Below, piece by piece: positions 534 through 14,901 of a stretch of 23,133 bases of DNA; the first letter of the stretch is position 1, and every line of letters begins with the position of its first letter. A program made the translations under genes and the position numbers. Location of the stretch: the UHGV virus genome UHGV-1818811, one strand, 5' to 3'. Below the pieces are notes generated by a model, which did no database searches, was not told the origin of the DNA, and worked only from the letters and a program-made list of their open reading frames with translations. The stretch is from a virus.

Positions 534-3287
534 ATGAACTGGATTGGTTCTCGGTGGTGGAAATTCGACTTCCATAATCACACTCCGGCATCGGACGATT
601 ATGGAAAAGGCCCTAATCAGGCCCAGTATATGCAGATCACTCATAAAGATTGGCTGCTCAACTACATGCGACAAGGCATCGATTGTGTCGCTGTCACGGA
701 CCATAATTCAGGCGCTTGGATTGATCCGCTCAAGCAGGCACTCAAGGAACTGGCATCTGAGAGTCATGAAGATTATCGACCACTCTACTTATTCCCAGGT
801 GTTGAGCTTACTGTTCAGGGGAATATCCATATTCTGGCCATTTTCGGCGAAGACAAGACAACCTCTGATATCGACTCACTGCTTGGTGCGGTCAGGTATC
901 GCGGCACCAAAGGAAAGAGCGACGGCTGCTCTGAATGCTCAGCAGTTGAGGTGATCGACGAAATTGCTAGGTCAGGAGGACTTGCAATACCTGCTCATGT
1001 AGATCAGGCTAGCGGACTTTTTACGGTCTGTACGGGCAACACACTAGAGCAGGTGCTTGACAACAAATGTGTTTTTGCTATGGAAGTAACGGACCTTGCT
1101 AAAGCAAAACCGCAGCTCTATATTGGCAAGAATTTGAATTGGGCAGCGATTCTTGGAACCGATTCCCATCATCCGTCCGGTACCGGAAATCAACGCTACC
1201 CGGGTAGCCATTTCACTTGGGTAAAAATGTCGGAGCCATCTTATGACGGATTACGGCTGGCGCTCGTTGATGGGGCTCTTTCACTGAAGCGGTCGGACAA
1301 CTTCACTGGTGACCCAAATATCCATGGACAACTTGCCATCGAAAGTATCGTGGTTGATGATGCGAAGTACTTAGGACGAGGGCAATCTTTAACTTGTCAA
1401 CTGAACCCCTGGCTCAACACTATCATTGGTGGACGAGGCACTGGGAAATCGACTTCGTTGGAATTCCTGCGGATTGCTCTTAAACGAAAGGGAGAAATCC
1501 CCAAGAGCCTTGAAAAGGAATTTACCAAATACAGTCAAACTTCGAAAGACCGCCAAGATGAAGGGCTGTTAAAAGATTCCACGAAAATAACTGTAGGCTT
1601 TCGAAAAGACGGTGGCCGTTTCCGAATCACCTGGTCTAATACCGACGACATATACAGCATCGAGGAAGAGACCGCTCCCGGAGTCTGGTGTGCTTCCGAG
1701 GGAGACATAGCACAACGATTTCCTGTCAGGATTTACAGCCAGAAACAGATATTCGAATTGGCAAAGCATCCCCAAGCACTCTTGCAGGTTGTCGATGATG
1801 CCCCGGAGGTCAATCATCGTGATTGGCAGCTTAAGTGGGATGAACTGGTTTCCAAATATCTCTCGCTTCGCGCCCAAGAGCGTGAAGTTCAGGCTGGGCT
1901 TCAGGAAGAATCGGTAACCAAAGGTCAGCTTGAAGACGTCAAACGCAAACTCGATGTTTTTGAAAAGGCGGGCCACGCGGATGTCCTTAAGGCTTACCAA
2001 CTCAGACAGAACCAGAGTAAAGCTATGGACTACTGGGTAACGACTTGGGAGGATTCCGCCGAACAGGTCCGAGATATTTCTGGAAGCCTACTGCCAGCAG
2101 AATTGGATTTACAATATTTCGACATTGGGAATGCGGATGACAAAGAACTCTTCGATACCATCAAGGACATCCGTGCGACGTTTGAGAAGCTTCAGACAGA
2201 GATGAACTCGATCGCGCAGCGGATTGATGATGTGAAGAACTCATGGAATCAAACTCGATCAGACTTGGGAATATCGAAAAGAATTACAGCGGCGAGCCAT
2301 GAATACAACGCCCTCCTCGGTCAACTCAGCGCAGCAGACGCAGGTGATCCATCTGCATATGGTGTTCTGGTTAAGCAGCGACAAGATTTCGAAGATAAGC
2401 TCAAGGGATTCGACAAAAAGAGAGAAACTCTTGCGCAGCATCAGAAGAGCGCGGAAGAATACTTGGTCAAACTCCATGAGCATCGAGCATTGATAACCAA
2501 ACTTCGTGAGGACTTTCTCAAGGATACTCTCGTCGGCAATTCATATGTACAGATCAATGTCATTCCGTTTGGAAACAAGATTACGGTTGAGGAAGAATTC
2601 CGTAACCTGATCGGCCGCAGTGGTGGCGGATTTGACCGCGACATTGGAGTTGTTGACGGGGATGAGGGCTTGCTGGCTTATTTAACGCAAGACCAATCCA
2701 ATACTATGGATGATAAAATTGAGAAAATAAAATCATCGCTACTTGCAATCCATGAAAACGATACTATGGCGGTGGAATCCTGCAAAGATCGACGTTTTGT
2801 ATCCCTCATTCAGGGGCTAACTCCGGAACAGATAGATCGAATTCAGTGCTGGTTTCCAGGCGATTCTCTGGATATCAGATATAGCCTCAAGAACGGCGAG
2901 AGTTTCAAACCCGTAGAGCAAGGATCTCCGGGGCAAAAAACGGCGGCTCTCCTTGCATTTATCCTTTCATATGGCAATGAGCCTCTTATACTTGATCAGC
3001 CTGAGGATGATCTTGATAACCACTTAATCTATGATCTTATCGTGACGCAATTGCGTGAGATCAAACAAAAACGGCAGGTTTTAGTAGTCACGCACAACGC
3101 TAACATCGTCGTGAATGGTGACGCGGAAAACGTCATTGCCCTTGATATTCGGTCTGGTCAAACCAGAATTGTGGCGCAAGGGGGTCTTCAAGAACCTTCC
3201 ATACGCGATGAGATATGCCGAGTGATGGAAGGTGGCAAAGAGGCCTTTACCCAAAGATATAAACGAATCAATGCAGCAATCAAATAG
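534..3287 (+). CDS. 917-aa fusion of an N-terminal PHP-family phosphoesterase domain with an SMC/Rad50-like ABC ATPase (Walker A, long coiled-coil insert, signature-like motif, Walker B, H-loop); candidate single-gene anti-phage protein with Ppl-like architecture
   Basis: PHP metal-binding motifs in the first ~210 aa: FHNHT, VTDHN, GVEL, HILA, PAHVD, TDSHH. Walker A IIGGRGTGKST (~aa 300). About 450 aa of predicted coiled coil. C-terminal SPGQKTAALLA (signature-like), LILDQPEDDLD (Walker B/D-loop), VVTHNANI (H-loop). No adjacent SbcD-like partner. GC visibly lower than the phage structural genes. Confidence 0.9.
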   Translation: MNWIGSRWWKFDFHNHTPASDDYGKGPNQAQYMQITHKDWLLNYMRQGIDCVAVTDHNSGAWIDPLKQALKELASESHEDYRPLYLFPGVELTVQGNIHILAIFGEDKTTSDIDSLLGAVRYRGTKGKSDGCSECSAVEVIDEIARSGGLAIPAHVDQASGLFTVCTGNTLEQVLDNKCVFAMEVTDLAKAKPQLYIGKNLNWAAILGTDSHHPSGTGNQRYPGSHFTWVKMSEPSYDGLRLALVDGALSLKRSDNFTGDPNIHGQLAIESIVVDDAKYLGRGQSLTCQLNPWLNTIIGGRGTGKSTSLEFLRIALKRKGEIPKSLEKEFTKYSQTSKDRQDEGLLKDSTKITVGFRKDGGRFRITWSNTDDIYSIEEETAPGVWCASEGDIAQRFPVRIYSQKQIFELAKHPQALLQVVDDAPEVNHRDWQLKWDELVSKYLSLRAQEREVQAGLQEESVTKGQLEDVKRKLDVFEKAGHADVLKAYQLRQNQSKAMDYWVTTWEDSAEQVRDISGSLLPAELDLQYFDIGNADDKELFDTIKDIRATFEKLQTEMNSIAQRIDDVKNSWNQTRSDLGISKRITAASHEYNALLGQLSAADAGDPSAYGVLVKQRQDFEDKLKGFDKKRETLAQHQKSAEEYLVKLHEHRALITKLREDFLKDTLVGNSYVQINVIPFGNKITVEEEFRNLIGRSGGGFDRDIGVVDGDEGLLAYLTQDQSNTMDDKIEKIKSSLLAIHENDTMAVESCKDRRFVSLIQGLTPEQIDRIQCWFPGDSLDIRYSLKNGESFKPVEQGSPGQKTAALLAFILSYGNEPLILDQPEDDLDNHLIYDLIVTQLREIKQKRQVLVVTHNANIVVNGDAENVIALDIRSGQTRIVAQGGLQEPSIRDEICRVMEGGKEAFTQRYKRINAAIK

Positions 3288-3305
3288 AACGGAGTTGCAC
3301 TTGAA

Positions 3306-3388
3306 CGGCAATTGCGCTGAGCTCAATTGCCGCCAATGCTTGGTCGTTAACGTCTGCTCCTGGCACAGGGCTGCTGTTGCAGCCCTGA
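3306..3388. other. Two perfect 9-bp-stem hairpins between convergent reading frames; possible transcript-end structures, not canonical intrinsic terminators
   Basis: CGGCAATTG-(9 nt loop)-CAATTGCCG at 3306-3332 and CAGGGCTGC-TGTT-GCAGCCCTG at 3367-3388. Neither is followed by a U-run on either strand. Confidence 0.3.
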
Positions 3389-3393
3389 CAACC

Positions 3394-3540
3394 TTAGACT
3401 TCAATCGATTCAGAGATCTCTAACGCATCATCGACTTCAATGCCCAGATAACGGAATGTGCTTTCCAGTTTCTTATGACCCAACAGAAGTTGAATCACCC
3501 GAAGATTCTTGGTCAGCGGACAATAGGTGCAACGCCATAT
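3394..3540 (-). pseudogene. Remnant of a tyrosine recombinase/integrase C-terminus (degraded, no intact upstream catalytic region)
   Basis: Minus-strand translation ends ...NLRVIQLLLGHKKLESTFRYLGIEVDDALEISESIEV*, matching the conserved LLGH....T.RY tail of tyrosine recombinases (RY = candidate catalytic Tyr). Upstream sequence in the same frame does not continue as a recognisable recombinase and no long ORF exists. Confidence 0.3.
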
Positions 3541-3847: not shown

Positions 3848-4384
3848 ATGTTAATAATTATACTAAAAAAAAGGAACATGGAATTTATGTTAAATTTAGA
3901 CGAAATGTGCAGCGCATTAAGAAAACAATACTCTATAACGGCTGGTCAAGATGGTGAGAAATATGCTAGTAGATGGCTGGAAAAATCCAAGTGGAAATTT
4001 GAACATGTTGAGCAAGGAATAAATACCTTATCTGCAAACTTGAAATCATATGGGGGGAAACGCCCCGATTTCATTATTGACGCTGACGAATCCTCTTATA
4101 TTCTTTTAGATGCGAAGTATCACTCAACAGATGGGTGTACCTCCTTTACACTTACTGATTGTGAAATAGGAAAGTATAGAGCACTTCAGCAATTCTTAAA
4201 AAATGTGTATAGTGATTGTACTTTCGAAGTAGTCTTTATGGTGTTTCCGAAAGAAAAAAATGGTGACGAATTTACATTTGTGAGTCTAGATGAGTTTGAT
4301 AAAGGAGAGTGTACGACTCTAGCATCAAAAGATGCAACGAAAATTAGTCTACTCTATCGAGATGACTTATGGTTTAAAAGTTGA
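3848..4384 (+). CDS. Small PD-(D/E)xK-fold nuclease-like protein (NERD / restriction-endonuclease-like core) in an AT-rich islet; family unassigned
   Basis: Motifs AGQDGE (GxxGE), GKRPDFIID (PD) and ILLDAKY (DxK) in canonical order and spacing. Islet ~3780-4520 is strongly AT-rich relative to flanking phage DNA. Start uncertain: ATG at 3848, 3878 or 3887; AAGGAA at 3871-3876 best serves the 3887 ATG. Confidence 0.8.
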   Translation: MLIIILKKRNMEFMLNLDEMCSALRKQYSITAGQDGEKYASRWLEKSKWKFEHVEQGINTLSANLKSYGGKRPDFIIDADESSYILLDAKYHSTDGCTSFTLTDCEIGKYRALQQFLKNVYSDCTFEVVFMVFPKEKNGDEFTFVSLDEFDKGECTTLASKDATKISLLYRDDLWFKS

Positions 4385-4691: not shown

Positions 4692-4730
4692 CCGCGACAC
4701 CTCCTGCATACGACATGTCTGCGGTTTTAT
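4692..4730 (+). terminator. Putative intrinsic terminator for plus-strand transcription, overlapping the stop codon of the convergent invertase gene
   Basis: CCGCGACA (4692-4699) pairs with TGTCTGCGG (4716-4724) with a 1-nt bulge, followed by TTTTATAT. The loop is large (16 nt), so confidence is low. Confidence 0.35.
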
Positions 4731-5281
4731 ATAACCCTGGCTGGAAACCTCTTATACAAAGTTGACACACCAACATCATAGATAATAGCCACCTTCTGGC
4801 GAGGAACGCCTGATGCAATTAATCGCCCGGCCTGCGCCCATTGTTCTGGTGTAAGTTTGGGACGACGTCCACCAATTCGTCCCTGTGCGCGAGCAGCTTC
4901 CAGTCCAGCTTTTGTTCGTTCAACAATCAGTTCTCGTTCCATTTCAGCCAGGGCACCCATCACATGAAAGAAAAAACGCCCCATCGGTGTGCTGGGATCA
5001 ATAGCATCCGTCAGGCTGCGAAAATTAACGCCACGTTCGCGCAACTCCTCAACCAGAATGACCAGATGCCGCATACTACGCCCCAGCCGATCCAGCTTCC
5101 AGACAACCAGAGTGTCACCTGTCGATAATGTCCTGAGCAGTTTTTTCAGTCCCGGCCTTTCGGACTTTGTACCGCTTACCTTGTCTTCAAAAATCAGCTC
5201 GCATCCTGCACAGTTCAGCGCATTACGTTGTAGATCTGTGTTCTGGTCATTTGTTGATACGCGTACATAGCCAATAAGCAT
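4727..5281 (-). CDS. pin: Serine DNA invertase of the Gin/Pin/Cin/Hin family (184 aa from the internal Met of the 196-aa ORF)
   Basis: MLIGYVRVSTNDQNTDLQRNAL... with catalytic Ser in YVRVST, ...LVVWKLDRLGRSM..., GRFFFHVMGALAEMERELI, C-terminal helix-turn-helix GRIGGRRPKL...; near-identical in pattern to Gin/Pin as I recall them. Sits next to an invertible tail-fibre segment. The symbol is generic for the family. Confidence 0.95.
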   Translation of the reverse strand: MLIGYVRVSTNDQNTDLQRNALNCAGCELIFEDKVSGTKSERPGLKKLLRTLSTGDTLVVWKLDRLGRSMRHLVILVEELRERGVNFRSLTDAIDPSTPMGRFFFHVMGALAEMERELIVERTKAGLEAARAQGRIGGRRPKLTPEQWAQAGRLIASGVPRQKVAIIYDVGVSTLYKRFPARVI

Positions 5282-5335
5282 GGTAGATCCCCCTGACAAA
5301 AGCAGGAATGATGCCATTTGCTCGTTATTTCTGCA

Positions 5336-5361
5336 TTTTCATAAACGTTGGTTTGAGAGAA
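5336..5361. repeat. Inversion crossover site (gix/pix-like), left boundary of the invertible segment
   Basis: TTTTCATAAACG TT GGTTTGAGAGAA has the AAAC..GGTTT dyad typical of Gin-family sites. It is an inverted copy of 7181-7206 (19/26 identical; segment-proximal arm 13/14). Confidence 0.6.
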
Positions 5362-5982
5362 GGTTCATTTGGGTTCAGAAATCTGGTTACCTTCACAACG
5401 GCTGGAGTAACAAGCTGGACTGTTCCTGAAGAGTTGCGCAAAGGAAGAAAATGTTACGTCAAAGTTATTGGTGGCGGTGCGTCAGGAGGGATAGGTTCAA
5501 CAACCGCTTCAGCCGTTACATGTGGCGGAGGGGGTGGTGGGGGCGGAGTTGCTGAGGGACTGGTAGATTTAACTGGTATAAACAGTGTTTCGATTACGGT
5601 TGGTGCCGGTGGTGCGCCTGTGTCTGGTATTTCTGTAAACGGTAAAAATGGTGGCTCGAGCAGTTTCGGGACTTACATGTCAGCTTCCGGAGGCTATAGC
5701 GGAGGCCAGCCTTCCGGAGGGTTAGGCGCAGTTGGTGTCGGGGGAACAATTAATACATCGCTTGGGCCAGGTTCTCCAGGTTCCATTGCTTCTGCCGCAT
5801 CGGGGGCTGGTAATGGTGGTTCTGGTGGTGGCCCCGGAGGAGCAGGTTCATTCAGAGATACAGCTAACGGAAAAGCGGTATCAGCAGTTGGGCCTGGAGG
5901 TGGCGGTGCTGGATTATGTCCTAATTCATCAACGGGTCAGTCGGGTGCCGGAGCAGATGGCGCAGTTTATATTTACTGGTGA
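5350..5982 (+). CDS. Silent alternative tail-fibre C-terminal cassette (Sv'-like, glycine-rich receptor-binding domain); no start codon of its own, expressed only after inversion
   Basis: The frame is open from the crossover site and begins GLREGS..., in phase with GLGEGS... at the equivalent point of the active tail-fibre gene. Sequence is Gly-rich (GGGASGGIGS...CGGGGGGGGV...). Opposite orientation to the tail operon. Confidence 0.65.
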   Translation, partial: GLREGSFGFRNLVTFTTAGVTSWTVPEELRKGRKCYVKVIGGGASGGIGSTTASAVTCGGGGGGGGVAEGLVDLTGINSVSITVGAGGAPVSGISVNGKNGGSSSFGTYMSASGGYSGGQPSGGLGAVGVGGTINTSLGPGSPGSIASAASGAGNGGSGGGPGGAGSFRDTANGKAVSAVGPGGGGAGLCPNSSTGQSGAGADGAVYIYW

Positions 5983-5989
5983 GGTTCAT

Positions 5990-6160
5990 ATGTGGGCAAG
6001 AATTGAAGAAAATAAAGTAGAAGAGATAACGGAAATTAATCCTGAAGGAAGATTCCATCCATCATTAATATGGAAAGAATGCCCTGCTGACACACAGCAG
6101 GGGGATTTATATATTGATGGTGAGTTTATTGCGCAGTCTCCGGCAGTTCAGGCCAGATAA
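5990..6160 (+). CDS. Small tail-fibre-assembly-like protein paired with the silent cassette (tfa'-like, 56 aa)
   Basis: ATG 5 nt after GAGG; starts 8 nt after the cassette stop. MWARIEENKVEEITEINPEGRFHPSLIWKECPADTQQGDLYIDGEF resembles the N-terminal region of Tfa/TAC proteins. Converges on and overlaps the 3' end of the active tfa. Short, so uncertain. Confidence 0.5.
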   Translation: MWARIEENKVEEITEINPEGRFHPSLIWKECPADTQQGDLYIDGEFIAQSPAVQAR

Positions 6161-6734
6161 CATCCGGCGCGGTGCTGGTATCTGTTGCCGTCACCGCGTC
6201 AATGTAATCCAGCACGGCGTTAAGTCGGGTTGTTTCTGCCTGCGTCAACTTCCGTCCGGCCTGTAATTTCAGCTGAATCAGACTAATGGAAGCCATTGCT
6301 GCATCAATCAGTGACTGGCGCTGTGCTTCTGCCGCGTCTACTGCGGCACTATGCTGTGCCTCAGTATCCGTCACCCATTTCTCACCATCCCATTTATCAT
6401 ATGGCGTTAACGGGGCGATAGTGGTTGTATTTTCAGGGTAATCACCCGGAGCTGTGATTTCTTTCGATTCTCCTGTTTCGGTGCTATAGATGATTTCACC
6501 GCGATGGTCTGGCACATATTCCCATGAGTTAAAATCTGCAGAACGGCAGATTGCATAACCAGCTTTATGTGTAACTGGTGCATCTAAACAAGAACATGCC
6601 GGGATACCGACGCCAACCGCAAGATATTCAGTTGATGTGGAAATATATTCCCGCGTTTCACCATCATAATTATAAATGGTAATGTCTCCCGCTTTTATGG
6701 CAATGAGTTCGTTATTTAATACGGCTTTATTCAT
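6126..6734 (-). CDS. Tail fibre assembly protein (Tfa)
   Basis: N-terminus [30 protein letters not shown]... and C-terminal ...TDTSTAPDVIWPELP are typical of Tfa chaperones. Start overlaps the stop of the upstream tail-fibre gene (ATGA). Confidence 0.85.
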   Translation of the reverse strand: MNKAVLNNELIAIKAGDITIYNYDGETREYISTSTEYLAVGVGIPACSCLDAPVTHKAGYAICRSADFNSWEYVPDHRGEIIYSTETGESKEITAPGDYPENTTTIAPLTPYDKWDGEKWVTDTEAQHSAAVDAAEAQRQSLIDAAMASISLIQLKLQAGRKLTQAETTRLNAVLDYIDAVTATDTSTAPDVIWPELPETAQ

Positions 6735-10075: not shown

Positions 10076-11154
10076 CAGAACGGGTCCTCCTGTACTCTGG
10101 CTTTTTTCTTTTTCCGCGCGCCGGGGGCTTCGGGTTCAGGCAGATAAGCATCAGGTGGGCCGACACGGATTTCCGTCAGGGTGCCGTTCTGGTCCTGAGT
10201 AAACGTGACTTCCGAGACAAGCAGTTCGGTATTGTCGAAACCACAGACCGGATCGAAGACAATCACCCGCTGGTTGGGCTGCCACAGCGTACCGTTACCC
10301 TGTCGCCAGCCCTGCACCACATAGGTGGTTTCATCCGTCCGCGCCGCCCGTTGTCGGGCTTCAAAGTCAGCACGCGCAATACAACCTGCCCCCGTGGCCT
10401 GCCCTGTCTGCCGGATATACATCGGACGGTAACGGGCAATAAATGCATCCTCTGTGCGGGCCCGCAGCGCGGTGGTGGTGGCCTCACCGAAATCATCGTC
10501 GTTTCCGGCACGCTGCCCCGCCACCTGGTAAACAGAAAACCGCTCCCGGATACTCTTCTCCGTATCACAGGAAAGGATGTTTTCCCCAAGTACCAGCGCG
10601 GTATGTGCCCGCGTTGAGCCAATACCGCCAATCACCAGCCTGCCGTGCGGGTCGTCGTAAGCCAGCGCCTGCTGCTGACCGAGTATTTTGTTGATTACCT
10701 CAATCACCGTTTCACCGTGATCAGGCTGAACATCAGGAATAACACCCGATGGCGCACCGCTGTTCACCACCTCAATGCCGAAAGGCGCAGCAAGCGCCTG
10801 CGCAATCTGCACCAGCGAGCGTCCGTTAAACTGTGTCGGTTCGGCTGCACAGTCAATCAGGTCAGCCGTCAGACTACGTCCGGCAATACCGGTGCTGACC
10901 GAACGGGCATCGTAACGAACGGGAGTCGCCTCCACCCAGCCGGTGATCACCAGCTCATCACCAATCAGCACTTCCACTTTTGAACCGTTTTTAATGCGCG
11001 GCTGAAGCGTGGTGATACCCTCATCTCCCGGCCACTGGCGAGTGATCTCCACACTGAAATCCCGCGCCAGCCGTTCAATACCGGCACCGATGCGCACCGA
11101 TGTCCAGCCATTCCACTCCCGGCCATTTACCCGTAGCGTGACATTGTCGTTCAT
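10075..11154 (-). CDS. Baseplate hub / late control D-like tail protein (Mu gp44/P-like)
   Basis: 359 aa; synteny directly downstream of the DNA-circulation gene; basic C-terminal tail ARKKKKARV. Confidence 0.8.
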   Translation of the reverse strand: MNDNVTLRVNGREWNGWTSVRIGAGIERLARDFSVEITRQWPGDEGITTLQPRIKNGSKVEVLIGDELVITGWVEATPVRYDARSVSTGIAGRSLTADLIDCAAEPTQFNGRSLVQIAQALAAPFGIEVVNSGAPSGVIPDVQPDHGETVIEVINKILGQQQALAYDDPHGRLVIGGIGSTRAHTALVLGENILSCDTEKSIRERFSVYQVAGQRAGNDDDFGEATTTALRARTEDAFIARYRPMYIRQTGQATGAGCIARADFEARQRAARTDETTYVVQGWRQGNGTLWQPNQRVIVFDPVCGFDNTELLVSEVTFTQDQNGTLTEIRVGPPDAYLPEPEAPGARKKKKARVQEDPF

Positions 11155-12527
11155 TGCACTGGCACCTTCAGAGGGATCACCGGCACAAAGCCGGGATGCG
11201 TAATGGCATTACGCCGGATAATGTCCGCGTCACGCGCCGCGTTATCAAACCAGGTCGCCGCCAGCACCAGCGCGGGTAAAACCTCATCCGGTGTGCGCTG
11301 AATGATCCGTGCAGACTGTTCAAGGCGCGTGTTGATATCCGCATTCAGATCTGCTTTCACCCGGCGCAGCGCCAGAAACAGCGCATCACTGGTTGTACGG
11401 GACAACTCCTTATCAATTGCCGTATTCAGTGTGTCGCGAATGTCAGTCAGTTCTTCCCACGTCGGCAGGTCAACCGTGTTTTTCACCGCCGGTGCATTGT
11501 TCAGTGCCGGATGCGTGACGGAAGGCCAGCCAGTGCTCTGCGCGGGTGTTGTTGCCTGCCCCACTGCGGAATTCTGCATCACCGCGGAAGTTGTTGGCGC
11601 AGGCAATCGGGTGACGGCATACGCCGCTTCGCTGATTGCGGTCGTACGAAGGGTGCTGGCAACCACGTTACGCTGCTGCGTCGCCGTGGCGGTGGTTTTA
11701 CTGTCCGTTTTCCAGACGCCGCGCGGTTGCAGATCGCTGCCGAGGCTGACACCGGAAAGCGTTTTGATCATGGTGACCAGGTCGCTGGCGTTACCATAAA
11801 GGCGTTTCCCGGTACGCCACATTTTCTGCACCTGCTCAACGAAATTTTTGCCTGAGGATGGCGGCGGCAGAAGTACCGAGATATCCCCCTGCAACAGCCT
11901 GGCGGCATCCGATACGGCAGAATCCACCACTTTCATCGCATCAGAAACATACCCAAGCATTGTGCTGGCATTACCGATAACGTCGTTCTGCACGAAATCC
12001 GCCACACCATCGATACTGAAACCGCTGAAGCTGTCACTGATGCAGTCATCCAGTGCAGAACAGGATGACATCAGCGTCTGCGCCGTCGCCGCACCTGATG
12101 TGGGGTAAGAGAGTTCTCCTGCTTCGACAAACTTCAGGTCAAAGCGGACAATACGCCCTTCACTTTTCGATGTGCTGACCCGAACTTCCCCGTCAACACA
12201 GACTTTCAGCTCACCATATGTCGGGTGGACAAGCGTGCCGGGACCGGGTTTATTCAGCGCTTCAATCAGGCGATCGCGCTGGTCAAAGCAGTCATCTCCC
12301 ACCACATAAGCTGTGATGGACGGGCGGAAAGTGACTTTTCCCAGATCTTCGGTATAGGGCTTGTCGCGGTTCGGGTATTCATGTGTTTCCACACGGCGAC
12401 CGGTTCCCGCACTTTCTTCTTCAACCTTAAACGGCACGCTGCGAAATGACGCATCCTGAAGCCTGTCTTTCCACGTCATATAAGTCCCATATTTATTATC
12501 AGTAGTAATATTTACTGGTAATGCCAT
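11151..12527 (-). CDS. DNA circulation protein (Mu gp43/N-like)
   Basis: 458 aa; N-terminal region MALPVNITTDNKYGTYMTWKDRLQDASFRSVPFKVEEES...HEYP is typical of Mu-like DNA-circulation proteins; follows the tape-measure gene. Confidence 0.8.
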   Translation of the reverse strand: MALPVNITTDNKYGTYMTWKDRLQDASFRSVPFKVEEESAGTGRRVETHEYPNRDKPYTEDLGKVTFRPSITAYVVGDDCFDQRDRLIEALNKPGPGTLVHPTYGELKVCVDGEVRVSTSKSEGRIVRFDLKFVEAGELSYPTSGAATAQTLMSSCSALDDCISDSFSGFSIDGVADFVQNDVIGNASTMLGYVSDAMKVVDSAVSDAARLLQGDISVLLPPPSSGKNFVEQVQKMWRTGKRLYGNASDLVTMIKTLSGVSLGSDLQPRGVWKTDSKTTATATQQRNVVASTLRTTAISEAAYAVTRLPAPTTSAVMQNSAVGQATTPAQSTGWPSVTHPALNNAPAVKNTVDLPTWEELTDIRDTLNTAIDKELSRTTSDALFLALRRVKADLNADINTRLEQSARIIQRTPDEVLPALVLAATWFDNAARDADIIRRNAITHPGFVPVIPLKVPVQ

Positions 12528-12589
12528 AATTTGTAGTGGTAGCCATTACCATTTGTAACCATATAAATTATTAGCATTAAGGTGATAAC

Positions 12590-13036
12590 ATGAAGAAATT
12601 ATTAAAATGGATTTTATATATTTTCATCGGGTTGGTGATTATTGGATATTTTGCAGGCAATAACGATAAAGGCTCTAATTCTTCATACTCATCCGATACG
12701 GAAGCTGCGGCACCGCAAAAAGAAATCTACAACACTACTGCTCGACAGCTGTTTAAAGAGTATGAAGAAAATGAAGTCGCTACCGATGAACAGTTAAAAG
12801 GTAAATTAATCGCCGTTAGAGGTATCGTACAATCCATTGATAAGGACTTTACTGACTCTATAATTATTAAATTCAGAACTGAAAATGAATTCATGCCAGC
12901 AAGAATGGAGATGCAAGACTCTGAAAAATCAACAGCTGCTGCTCTTAAAAAAGGAGAACAAGTAACTGTTATTTGCGAAAAAATGTCCAGAATTGTCGGC
13001 TCCCCATCAGGCCGAAATTGCGTGTTCGCACAGTAA
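12590..13036 (+). CDS. Moron: 148-aa membrane-anchored protein (N-terminal TM/signal-anchor, ~115-aa extracytoplasmic domain, possibly an OB-fold / tRNA_anti-like family member); function unknown
   Basis: MKKLLKWILYIFIGLVIIGYFAG = hydrophobic N-terminal helix. AAGGTGA Shine-Dalgarno before the ATG. AT-rich, opposite strand to the flanking tail genes, own terminator immediately downstream. Confidence 0.8.
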   Translation: MKKLLKWILYIFIGLVIIGYFAGNNDKGSNSSYSSDTEAAAPQKEIYNTTARQLFKEYEENEVATDEQLKGKLIAVRGIVQSIDKDFTDSIIIKFRTENEFMPARMEMQDSEKSTAAALKKGEQVTVICEKMSRIVGSPSGRNCVFAQ

Positions 13037-13039
13037 GTT

Positions 13040-13070
13040 CAGGGAGGGACGGCCCTCCCTGTTCGTCTTT
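13040..13070 (+). terminator. Rho-independent terminator of the moron gene
   Basis: CAGGGAGGG-ACGG-CCCTCCCTG (perfect 9-bp GC-rich stem) followed by TTCGTCTTT, 4 nt after the moron stop codon. Confidence 0.6.
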
Positions 13071-14901
13071 ACCTAAATCTGGTGTACCCAACATCGTGAT
13101 TAATATCAATGCCACTGGAACGTGTTTCCGTAACCCGCATACCTGGTGGCATATTCATAAATGAAACCTTGATCTCGCCATCAACTTTTGGCGCAATAGC
13201 TTTGTTAATCATGAAGGGATTCGGGCCTGTGGCATCGGAGGCGTTGTTTGACTGAGCCGGATCCACCGCCGGATAAGGTGTGTATCCCCGCGTCGGTATT
13301 CCCGTCCCATAAGCATCATAAGCACCCGCGCCCCACTGCGCAGAGTTAATGGCATCGACCGTGTCACCGGAACTGTCGGTAAACCACTCAATAATTGGCT
13401 TCAGCTTGTCCCACATATCCTGAAACCACTTAACAACCTGCCCCCAGTTATTGATCACCATCCCCAGCGGCGACCAGGCAAAAACTTTCTTAAGGAGTTC
13501 CCAGCCAGCCTCAAAATAAGGACCAATGGTTTCCCAGAGTTTCTTAAAATAAGGTCCGACAACATCCCAGTTAGTGATAATTAATCCCGCAGCCAGGGCT
13601 ATCGCCGTCGCAATCATGCCAATCGGCGTCATCGACATGATCCTGCTGACAATACTGATGGCACCGCCAACGCCCATCAATCCCAGTTTCAGAATCGCAA
13701 GACCGGCAGCAAGCCCGACGACGCCGCGAATAACCCGGGGATTTTCATCCGCAAACTTCGTGAATTTTTCCCCCAACTCCCCCAGCCATTGCGTGATATT
13801 TTTAGCGTCACCAGAAAATGCGCCGCCAATAGCTGCAAGACCGTTAGTTGCGGTCCCCGTCATTGCCTCCCACAGGTTGGACAGCGTACCAAGCTGAGCC
13901 TGAACACGTTTATTCAGGCTGGCCTGTTTATTCATCTTCTGCTGGATCTGATCGTAGCCATCCTTTCCTTTATCGATCAGGGCATTGACCACCTGAAGGG
14001 TTTCGGCATCATCACCAAATATTGCCTTAAGTACGCCTGTTCGCTTAACGTCGGTCAGTTTTCGCAACTTTGCCAGTTGCCTGAACATGTTATCAAGACC
14101 GCCAAAACTTCCTTTGCCGTCAGTAAAATCGAGCTGTACCCCGAGTTTCTGGCGGGCCATGATTTTATTGACGTCCCTGATTTTCTTAACGCTTAATCCG
14201 GACTGGATAACTTTTCGCAGGGCGTTACCTGCCGACTCCCCGTTCATCCCCATCTGATCCATCATGACGCTGATGGGGGCAAGGCTCTGTGCAGCCTGAA
14301 GACCGTCCTTGTTCACCATCTTCAGAACAGAGCTGGTTTTAGTGAAGAAGGACAACATGTTGGTATCGTCAACGCCCAGATAAAACGCCTTCTGGATAGT
14401 GTCGAACAGCCCCATCATGTCTTCTGACGCCGTTCCGGTAGCATCCTGCATCTTTGCGGCAAACTCGGCAGCCGCTTCCGGTGTTTTTTTCAGTTGTACC
14501 GCAAGATAAGCTGTCGCTTTACCCACACCGCCAAGAATGTTTTCTGCCGGGATCCCCTGACGCACCAGCATCTGCATCATGTTCTGGAAATCAGCCGTTG
14601 TACCGGGTAGCTGATTACCCAGGCCAATAGCCAGTTTATTGATGTCCTGAAAGCTCTTTCCAACCTCGCCGTTCGCATCCATCATGGCGACTTTCAGCCC
14701 GGTGGCGGCGTTTTCCTGATCGGCATAAGATTTCAGGGAAAGCGTCAGACCCGCTGCCAGTCCGCCACCAAGCGCCAGCCCACCCTGTGACGCTTCTTCC
14801 GCCTGGCGTTTAAATCCCCGGATTTTCTTTTGCATTTTCGACAGCGCGGGAGAAAGCCTGTCGACACCGGTGATCAACGCCTTAAGCTCAAATTCCGCCA
14901 T
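13069..14901 (-). CDS. Tail tape measure protein
   Basis: 610 aa, Ala/Gly/Leu-rich with predicted long helices and C-terminal hydrophobic segments; lies directly after the frameshifted chaperone pair. Confidence 0.85.
   Translation of the reverse strand: MAEFELKALITGVDRLSPALSKMQKKIRGFKRQAEEASQGGLALGGGLAAGLTLSLKSYADQENAATGLKVAMMDANGEVGKSFQDINKLAIGLGNQLPGTTADFQNMMQMLVRQGIPAENILGGVGKATAYLAVQLKKTPEAAAEFAAKMQDATGTASEDMMGLFDTIQKAFYLGVDDTNMLSFFTKTSSVLKMVNKDGLQAAQSLAPISVMMDQMGMNGESAGNALRKVIQSGLSVKKIRDVNKIMARQKLGVQLDFTDGKGSFGGLDNMFRQLAKLRKLTDVKRTGVLKAIFGDDAETLQVVNALIDKGKDGYDQIQQKMNKQASLNKRVQAQLGTLSNLWEAMTGTATNGLAAIGGAFSGDAKNITQWLGELGEKFTKFADENPRVIRGVVGLAAGLAILKLGLMGVGGAISIVSRIMSMTPIGMIATAIALAAGLIITNWDVVGPYFKKLWETIGPYFEAGWELLKKVFAWSPLGMVINNWGQVVKWFQDMWDKLKPIIEWFTDSSGDTVDAINSAQWGAGAYDAYGTGIPTRGYTPYPAVDPAQSNNASDATGPNPFMINKAIAPKVDGEIKVSFMNMPPGMRVTETRSSGIDINHDVGYTRFR

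Follow-up and report, generated by a model that had tools for sequence, protein, structure and literature searches.

Why should a phage tail operon carry a gene on the opposite strand, and what would the product of that gene do? The question is raised by UHGV virus genome UHGV-1818811, from which we analyzed a stretch of 23,133 nucleotides, referred to here as the window. The window corresponds to the late region of an SfV-like Escherichia coli prophage, whose head genes are of HK97 type and whose contractile tail is of Mu type, and between its tape-measure and DNA circulation (N) genes lies a short open reading frame (ORF) coding for a protein labeled by NCBI as 'OB-fold protein' (WP_000734912.1). 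We conclude that this ORF is best read as a moron, recombined antisense into the tape measure-N junction, whose product is a remote homologue of the lactococcal superinfection exclusion (Sie) protein Sie2009, sharing its architecture. We lean, with modest confidence, toward a role for the protein in envelope-level phage exclusion.

An earlier reading of the sequence alone had placed the gene between the tape-measure and DNA-circulation genes, both on the minus strand, and matches to PF10145 and PF07157 confirm these identities. It had set the left edge of the insert at 12528, which derives from the longest ORF of N and does not hold; both homology to relatives and RefSeq annotation place the N start at 12479, giving the 443-residue protein annotated in relatives, and the foreign DNA therefore spans 584 bp (Table 1). 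In alignments, homology to SfII, SfV, and SKA5 ends directly after CACGTCATATAA and resumes at the tape-measure stop codon. We note that the longest N ORF starts at 12527, within the foreign insert, adding 48 nt and 16 residues (MALPVNITTDNKYGTY), and that the SfII and SfIV records annotate N genes with a similar extension. The AT-richness noticed at the outset is borne out, with 37.2% GC in the cassette versus 52% for the window, and 37.1% GC in the ORF, which is flanked by DNA of 52 to 58% GC; GC content at third codon positions (GC3) is 0.34 for the ORF versus 0.57 for the tape measure and 0.61 for N. There are only short chance repeats around the insert and no flanking direct repeats or target-site duplication; there is thus no sign of transposition, and recombination is the likelier route. 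A scan of the whole window against Rfam at gathering thresholds gave no match.

The tape-measure gene itself is diverged from those of SfV and SfII over its last ~35 codons and is nearly identical over the remainder (21/26 identities in the last block and 35 to 40/40 in blocks elsewhere), and next to a second allele of the cassette, in E. coli I3, the divergence extends over ~100 codons. These differences are most simply explained as a recombination boundary. A functional pairing of tape-measure C-terminal variants with the cassette was considered and set aside: the variants do track the cassette, but a recombination boundary accounts for this equally well.

Related phages show the junction both without and with cargo. 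The sequenced phages SfV, SfI, SfII, and vB_EcoM-689R6 match both flanks by megablast, with ~526 bp absent between them, and the distance from tape measure to N is 18 to 45 bp in SfV, SfI, SfII, and SfIV, so an empty site between the two tail genes, which the sequence-only reading proposed to look for, does exist; SfIV has no gene at the junction beside a different tape-measure allele. SfV, SfI, SfII, and SfIV were all isolated as phages (PMC3636060, PMC3851460). Of 5,426 complete E. coli genomes surveyed, 1,096 contain the flanking tail module, and only 74 to 79 of these have the OB-fold gene. Junction states were read from an evenly spaced 60-row sample of 1,104 records; ~45% of the sample have an empty span of 1,275 bp, compared with 1,801 bp here, and other sampled prophages hold unrelated cassettes. 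The best whole-window matches (93% coverage, ~98% identity) likewise carry a different cassette at this position.

Six alternative cassettes were noted, among them those coding for a bPH_1 protein (125 amino acids), an N-terminally anchored protein (176 amino acids), a lipoprotein with an LLGGC lipobox (225 amino acids), a signal-peptide protein in phage SKA5 (170 amino acids), and a 164-amino-acid protein in the closest whole-window relative. The first four were analyzed further, leaving aside the 164-residue protein and a variant of the 225-residue type; their GC contents are 31 to 41%, and three of the four products are envelope targeted, being exported or anchored. The 164-residue protein has no match in PADLOC, nor does any other junction cassette tested against it. 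All six are on the tail strand, and the OB-fold gene alone is antisense. By tblastn, 50,697 sequenced phages yield two distant relatives of its product only, and none carries the window allele. The gene thus has the layout of a moron, as proposed from the sequence: extra DNA between genes that are adjacent in related phages, a composition unlike that of its surroundings, and a predicted terminator of its own together with a conserved promoter-like element.

The protein matches PF12869 (tRNA_anti-like) with 69.5 bits (gathering cutoff, 23.5; E value, 2.9e-19), its residues 2 to 130 aligning to positions 5 to 131 of the 146 in the model, which is exactly the family that had been guessed from sequence pattern; the same domain is assigned to each of the 89 homologues for which a precomputed Pfam entry exists. 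An AlphaFold2 model built from a 56-sequence alignment has a mean predicted local distance difference test score (pLDDT) of 86.7, with a helix at residues 2 to 22, disorder at residues 25 to 39 (pLDDT <50), and an alpha-capped beta-barrel at residues 45 to 148 (pLDDT 94 to 98), a predicted OB fold like that of the solved representative of PF12869. The proposed N-terminal membrane anchor is likewise predicted, both by the model helix and by hydropathy, residues 4 to 22 after MKKLLK giving the 19-residue maximum (mean Kyte-Doolittle value, 2.16), and the protein does have a predicted export or anchor signal. The linker that follows varies in length among homologues. A PDB sequence search returned only noise; the Klebsiella pneumoniae structural-genomics entry 3F1Z, a 'putative nucleic acid-binding lipoprotein', is 16% identical to the window protein. 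A BFVD match, A0A8S5U313, is a 352-amino-acid gut siphophage protein that aligns structurally with the whole query and is named 'Host cell surface-exposed lipoprotein', which we take to denote the Ltp family that includes the exclusion protein of Streptococcus thermophilus phage TP-J34; A0A8S5U313 could thus combine two exclusion-associated domains in one fusion protein.

The case for exclusion is built on the homology to Sie2009. The window protein matches phrog_8545, 'superinfection exclusion Sie-like', over residues 1 to 146 with an E value of 1.5e-49, and Sie2009 (orf2 in the Tuc2009 record, located between integrase and repressor) matches both this group (E value, 1.7e-79) and PF12869 (43.3 bits; E value, 3.5e-11), placing the two proteins in one family. 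An hhalign comparison of the enterobacterial family alignment with Sie2009 gives 97.7% probability and an E value of 2.5e-12 over 131 columns that run from the anchor across the Ser/Thr linker and through most of the OB domain, including the motif Y-x-x-N-x-x-A-x-D-x-x-x-KGK. Like the Sie2009-type proteins, the window protein is small and has a predicted hydrophobic membrane N terminus. PMC7693887, citing McGrath 2002 and Mahony 2008, describes Sie2009 as a membrane-associated protein that prevents DNA injection by heterologous phages, and its identical copy SieLC3 as having a broader range than was first thought. The suggestion that the gene is a superinfection-exclusion candidate thus gains support from homology to an experimentally characterized DNA-injection blocker.

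Where the OB domain resides is central to any mechanism, and five independent lines of prediction place it in the periplasm. Charges flanking the helix are all on the N-terminal side (K2, K3, and K6), with the C-terminal flank net neutral, which predicts an N-in, C-out orientation. Among 83 homologues of at least 120 amino acids, a hydrophobic segment is present at the N terminus of 76 and is replaced by a lipobox in 4 (…ISGC, …LAAC, …LTAC), while several have a Cys4 zinc ribbon upstream of the helix, consistent with N-in. Two Cys residues are invariant across the alignment and keep a fixed 15-residue spacing in 79 of the 83, as for a periplasmic disulfide, and the domain is acidic (isoelectric point [pI], 5.1 to 5.2), unlike nucleic-acid-binding OB folds. 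Finally, the profile of Clostridioides difficile TcdC matches PF12869 (PMC3575817), and the C-terminal OB domain of TcdC is extracellular by cysteine accessibility and HiBiT assays (bioRxiv 10.1101/872283). Receptor masking, raised as a possibility in the sequence-only reading, is unlikely; the protein has no lipobox of the kind found in the Cor/Llp-type outer-membrane receptor-blocking lipoproteins, with no Cys before residue 129, and would be held at the inner membrane by its ~20-residue linker.

Signals that may permit expression from a repressed prophage surround the gene. The strong Shine-Dalgarno sequence reported earlier is present, and the window and I3 alleles agree exactly in the ribosome-binding site and over the first 12 codons; AGGTGATAACATG is unchanged in the I3 allele, which is 74% identical. 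A consensus promoter scan found nothing upstream of the ORF, and the candidate in Table 1 came from a custom scan only. Its extended -10, TGc[C/T/G]ATAA[T/A], is located 59 to 62 nt upstream of the ATG in the window, I3, and Buttiauxella alleles although the surrounding sequence differs; the I3 and Buttiauxella form at the same site is TGc[T/G]ATAAA. We infer that the gene would be transcribed in the lysogen from this weak promoter of its own and that late tail-operon transcription would cross it in antisense.

Downstream, 4 nt past the stop codon, is the hairpin CAGGGAGGG-ACGG-CCCTCCCTG (13040-13061), with 9 bp of which seven are G-C pairs; its folding energy is -19.5 kcal/mol (z = -3.2), a value that no shuffled sequence out of 200 equaled. 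The GGGAGGG/CCCTCCC stem is retained in the window, I3, and Buttiauxella alleles with differing loops, and a GC hairpin is present 3' of every homologue examined, so a predicted terminator is kept even in divergent alleles. Its description as a textbook GC-stem/U-run terminator is right as to the hairpin and not as to the run, since the T-tract is interrupted. In the direction of the tail strand, AACTTACTG comes after the hairpin and contains no U-tract, so that tail-operon transcription should not be halted there. The empty SfII and SfV junctions have a hairpin of their own on the tail strand, followed by T6, between tape measure and N, which would be an unusual place, inside a tail operon, for an intrinsic terminator; that of SfII (2190-2228 of the SfII locus) has been annotated as rho independent. 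Buttiauxella retains a similar hairpin beside its cassette (upstream of 6001 in the Buttiauxella locus), and the window has lost it.

Table 1. Features of the cassette and its flanking genes (window coordinates)
Feature	Position	Strand	Details
Inserted AT-rich cassette (moron, best reading)	12485..13068	+	Between conserved start of gene N (12479) and tape-measure stop codon (13069-13071)
Candidate sigma-70 promoter	12503..12530	+	Weak -35 TAGTAA (12503-12508), 16-nt spacer, extended -10 TGcCATAAT (12522-12530); custom scan
Shine-Dalgarno AAGGTGA	12579..12585	+	4 nt upstream of ATG, read from sequence
Coding sequence	12590..13036	+	148 amino acids, ATG start
Signal-anchor (predicted)	12593..12658	+	Residues 2-23: K2, K3, K6, then hydrophobic helix
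Ser/Thr-rich disordered linker (predicted)	12659..12721	+	Residues 24-44
OB-fold domain (predicted)	12722..13033	+	Residues 45-148, acidic (pI 5.1-5.2), invariant Cys pair C129/C144
Intrinsic-terminator-like hairpin and interrupted T-tract TTCGTCTTT	13040..13070	+	Hairpin 13040-13061
Gene N (DNA circulation/baseplate hub, Mu gpN-like)	11151..12479	-	PF07157 DNA_circ_N, phrog_184; translation starts MTWKDRLQ
Tail tape measure gene	13069..14901	-	610 amino acids; PF10145, phrog_28

The alleles at this junction are ancient relative to the tail modules that carry them. The I3 and Buttiauxella alleles, the latter also antisense between tape measure and N, code for proteins 70 to 73% identical, and synonymous sites are saturated (proportion of synonymous differences [pS], 0.67 to 0.81). 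The proportion of nonsynonymous differences (pN) in the OB domain is 0.11 to 0.21 among the alleles compared, with pS at 0.76 to 0.89, and 0.11 to 0.12 for I3 and Buttiauxella; set against the saturated pS, these low values point to purifying selection. The linker is the fastest-evolving part (pN, 0.40 to 0.60, and ~0.43 for I3 and Buttiauxella). That anciently diverged alleles sit in nearly identical tail modules argues that cassettes have been exchanged while the domain stayed under purifying selection.

More distant relatives are found in a variety of phage contexts. A relative is encoded on 103 IMG/VR viral contigs, and in 26 of the 80 loci that were retrieved and from which positions were read the antisense tape measure-N arrangement recurs; on ~11 P2-like IMG/VR contigs the gene follows an ORF of its own strand and converges with gpD. 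Burkholderia phage Carl1 has this arrangement too, at the end of the immunity-repressor operon, and its annotated gene order is immunity repressor, hypothetical protein, PF12869 gene, and terminator. Two further variants are also antisense: one that is a lipoprotein, between gpU and gpD of another P2-like prophage, and one with a zinc ribbon, among the tail and baseplate genes of Klebsiella phage ST405-OXA48phi1.2. A Serratia copy is at a prophage end, after tail-fiber genes and an acyltransferase. These positions are typical of lysogenic conversion genes.

On our best reading, the cassette is a self-contained unit of promoter-like element, ribosome-binding site, one gene, and predicted terminator, and its product would be made from the repressed prophage. 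The product would be a type II inner-membrane protein with a short cytoplasmic MKKLLK tail, a single transmembrane helix, a Ser-rich tether of ~20 residues, and a disulfide-stabilized acidic OB domain, which the flexible tether would hold a few nanometers into the periplasm. Other phages would still adsorb, but their genomes would be stopped from crossing the periplasm and inner membrane. The OB domain could bind the incoming tail-tip/tape-measure conduit, or else some component of the host inner membrane or periplasm on which this conduit depends. The step interfered with would be that at which the tape-measure/tail-tip complex builds the DNA channel, which is also where the inner-membrane exclusion or defense proteins HK97 gp15, P22 SieA, and SNIPE act; SNIPE associates with tape-measure proteins (PMC13190303).

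Several observations weigh against this reading. Identity to Sie2009 is ~27% over the hhalign columns, which is remote homology; OB folds readily switch ligands, and Sie2009 acts in a Gram-positive envelope on siphophages, such that the target molecule cannot be shared. PADLOC and NCBIfam give no meaningful match for the window protein, and in the literature searched we found no experimental work on it or on any Gram-negative family member, nor any paper that mentions WP_000734912.1. The putative promoter is weak and the T-tract of the predicted terminator is imperfect. In E. coli 042 and ~16 other genomes a deletion of ~142 bp (12519-12660) has removed the promoter-like element, ribosome-binding site, start codon, and anchor, indicating that the gene is dispensable to the phage and sometimes decays; we note that RefSeq still annotates a 128-amino-acid 'OB-fold protein' at 3001-3441 of the 042 locus, and this ORF is probably a pseudogene. 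Lastly, homologues in Pantoea and Pectobacterium (55 to 65% identical) lie in small islets of the chromosome that have no phage genes around them, the Pantoea copy having copCD-yebY, WapI, and IraP as neighbors and the Pectobacterium copy following rplS.

The Pantoea, Serratia, and Pectobacterium homologues also share a ~40-nt block (TTTGAATG…GTAAC[CT]CCTCT.GGGG) located ~40 to 60 nt upstream of the start, at ~5890-5960, ~5900-5960, and ~6080-6150 of their respective loci. In Pectobacterium the block is annotated within an N-terminally extended ORF. Its role may be regulatory, or it may be what is left of a gene that once lay upstream.

The chromosomal islets also fit a host envelope role that does not involve phages, in which the gene would be an envelope fitness or lysogenic-conversion factor unrelated to exclusion. 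Its periplasmic OB domain would then bind a porin, peptidoglycan, or oligosaccharide and alter resistance to stress, antimicrobial peptides, or colicins, in the manner of Bor and Lom in lambda. The ligands of OB folds include oligosaccharides and proteins in addition to nucleic acids, and one OB-fold protein of the periplasm, YdeI/OmdA, is a porin binder that gives protection from antimicrobial peptides; the absence of the family from PADLOC is also in keeping with such a role. We nonetheless regard this explanation as unlikely, while giving it appreciable weight, because the 103 viral contigs carry relatives at lysogenic-conversion positions and because the sole family member with a demonstrated phenotype is the phage-exclusion protein Sie2009 (PMC7693887). 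Moreover, the homologues of HK97 gp15 (YebO) are also mostly chromosomal, yet gp15 is an exclusion protein (PMC3594210).

A second alternative is abortive infection of the kind mediated by AbiP of Lactococcus and PdpSau of a Staphylococcus aureus prophage, membrane-anchored OB-fold antiphage proteins whose basic, nucleic-acid-binding OB domains are cytoplasmic and act after entry (PMC10127798). The OB domain of the window protein would in that case bind phage nucleic acid in the cytoplasm and either halt replication or kill the cell. The membrane anchor and OB fold are common to both, but the topology evidence contradicts this model, which we rejected as very improbable: the charge distribution predicts N-in, C-out; the lipobox variants, the variants with a zinc ribbon and then a transmembrane segment, and the invariant Cys pair all point to an exported domain, as does the position of the TcdC OB domain outside the cell (bioRxiv 10.1101/872283); and the acidic window domain contrasts with the positively charged domain of PdpSau (PMC10127798).

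The least credible explanation is that the protein works for the phage and not for the lysogen, as an accessory in tail assembly, injection, or lysis. Its place in mid tail operon next to the tape measure might suggest this, as might the final ~35 tape-measure codons, which differ from their counterparts in phages with an empty site. We rejected it, since the gene is on the strand opposite to the tail operon, is absent from the isolated phages SfV, SfI, SfII, and SfIV and from most related prophages, is replaced by unrelated cassettes in other prophages and deleted in the 042 type, and is found again in P2-like repressor operons and chromosomal islets, and so is not a conserved structural component translated with the tail genes.

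Envelope-level exclusion is our preferred reading. Two wider ideas are put forward tentatively, and we consider them rather doubtful at present. The first is that tethered extracytoplasmic PF12869 OB proteins constitute one ancient, cross-phylum exclusion family, which may embrace Sie2009, the enterobacterial and Burkholderia prophage proteins, and TcdC as a domesticated relic, and whose members may obstruct the trans-envelope DNA conduit by attaching to the tape-measure/tail-tip complex as it emerges. The second, separate idea is that the tape measure-N junction is an unrecognized swap site, at which at least six unrelated, mostly envelope-targeted cassettes may have been swapped between nearly identical tail modules, perhaps a tail-operon counterpart of the P2/P4 defense hotspots. 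We note that the family (in Pfam and PHROG) and the concepts of moron and Sie are already known, and that databases already group the window protein with Sie2009. In the literature searched, we found no description of the connection between Sie2009, TcdC, and the enterobacterial proteins, of the tape measure-N junction as a swap site, or of a recurrent antisense position in tail operons, and nothing on PF12869 in phage defense beyond the TcdC paper; the paper on Tai tail-assembly interference (PMC11364771) does not describe a tape measure-N hotspot.

Should the exclusion activity prove true, this protein would be a genetically tractable E. coli member of the Sie2009 family, whose mechanism has been unexplained since 2002, and would offer a defined periplasmic domain with which to probe the passage of DNA from contractile-tailed and other phages over the periplasm and inner membrane. 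The gene is present in ~1.5% of complete E. coli genomes and could affect the host ranges of therapeutic phages. The junction itself is found in roughly a fifth of E. coli genomes, and its other cassettes, at least six and all uncharacterized, are candidates for envelope-level phage resistance. The TcdC link also provides a testable idea for a protein of disputed role in C. difficile.

The same prophage carries other cargo. A 917-amino-acid ATPase (534-3287, plus strand) is a full-length match to the PADLOC antiphage defense system 'Ppl' (E value, 6.5e-157), and the prophage thus carries a second, recognized defense cargo; its relatives are named 'TrlF family AAA-like ATPase' by RefSeq. The gene is at the prophage end, which in relatives adjoins the chromosomal paoD and LysR genes. 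Between the Ppl gene and an invertase is a second AT-rich islet (35 to 37% GC) with a 178-amino-acid ORF (3848-4384, plus strand) that has no Pfam or PADLOC match and is probably another cargo gene. The invertase is a Pin-type serine recombinase (Resolvase and HTH_7 domains; 4727-5317, minus strand), and beside it are opposed tail-fiber C-terminus and tail-fiber-assembly genes (5308-5982 and 5732-6160, plus strand; 6126-6734, minus strand). The region 4727-6734 has the look of a host-range segment that can be inverted, of the Mu Gin/e14 Pin type.

Among known systems, Sie2009 and SieLC3 are the closest in kind. Like the window protein, they have PF12869 and phrog_8545 matches, an N-terminal anchor, a Ser/Thr-rich linker, and a C-terminal OB domain of ~100 residues, and all are coded by single-gene prophage cassettes. 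They differ in that the host of the window prophage is Gram-negative and has a periplasm, and in that the gene is not between integrase and repressor as in the lactococcal Sie systems but antisense in a myophage tail operon, between tape measure and N; the enterobacterial Cys pair falls where the hhalign alignment does not reach. TcdC shares a membrane anchor and a C-terminal OB domain matching PF12869, and is likened through that profile only; it has a coiled-coil dimerization helix, is discussed as a regulator of toxin expression, and has no exclusion phenotype on record, although its homologues in Lactobacillus and Leuconostoc phages are located between cI and int (PMC3575817; bioRxiv 10.1101/872283). 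AbiP and PdpSau are set apart by their basic, cytoplasmic OB domains, that of the window protein being acidic and predicted to be exported.

Two further systems are alike in their mode of working. We saw no sequence kinship between P22 SieA and the window protein in the searches made; SieA is a prophage-expressed inner-membrane protein that blocks the trans-envelope DNA conduit, with escape mutations in ejection proteins (PMC10883804), and its mode of action is the same as that proposed here, although SieA acts specifically on ejection proteins from P22-like podophages. HK97 gp15, of the YebO family, is the original moron, an inner-membrane, prophage-expressed protein that imposes a tail-dependent block on genome entry (PMC3594210). 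It is unrelated to the window protein, small, and without an OB domain, and its gene is upstream of the tape measure, but, like the window gene, it is an AT-rich moron in a tail operon, directly adjoining the tape-measure gene.

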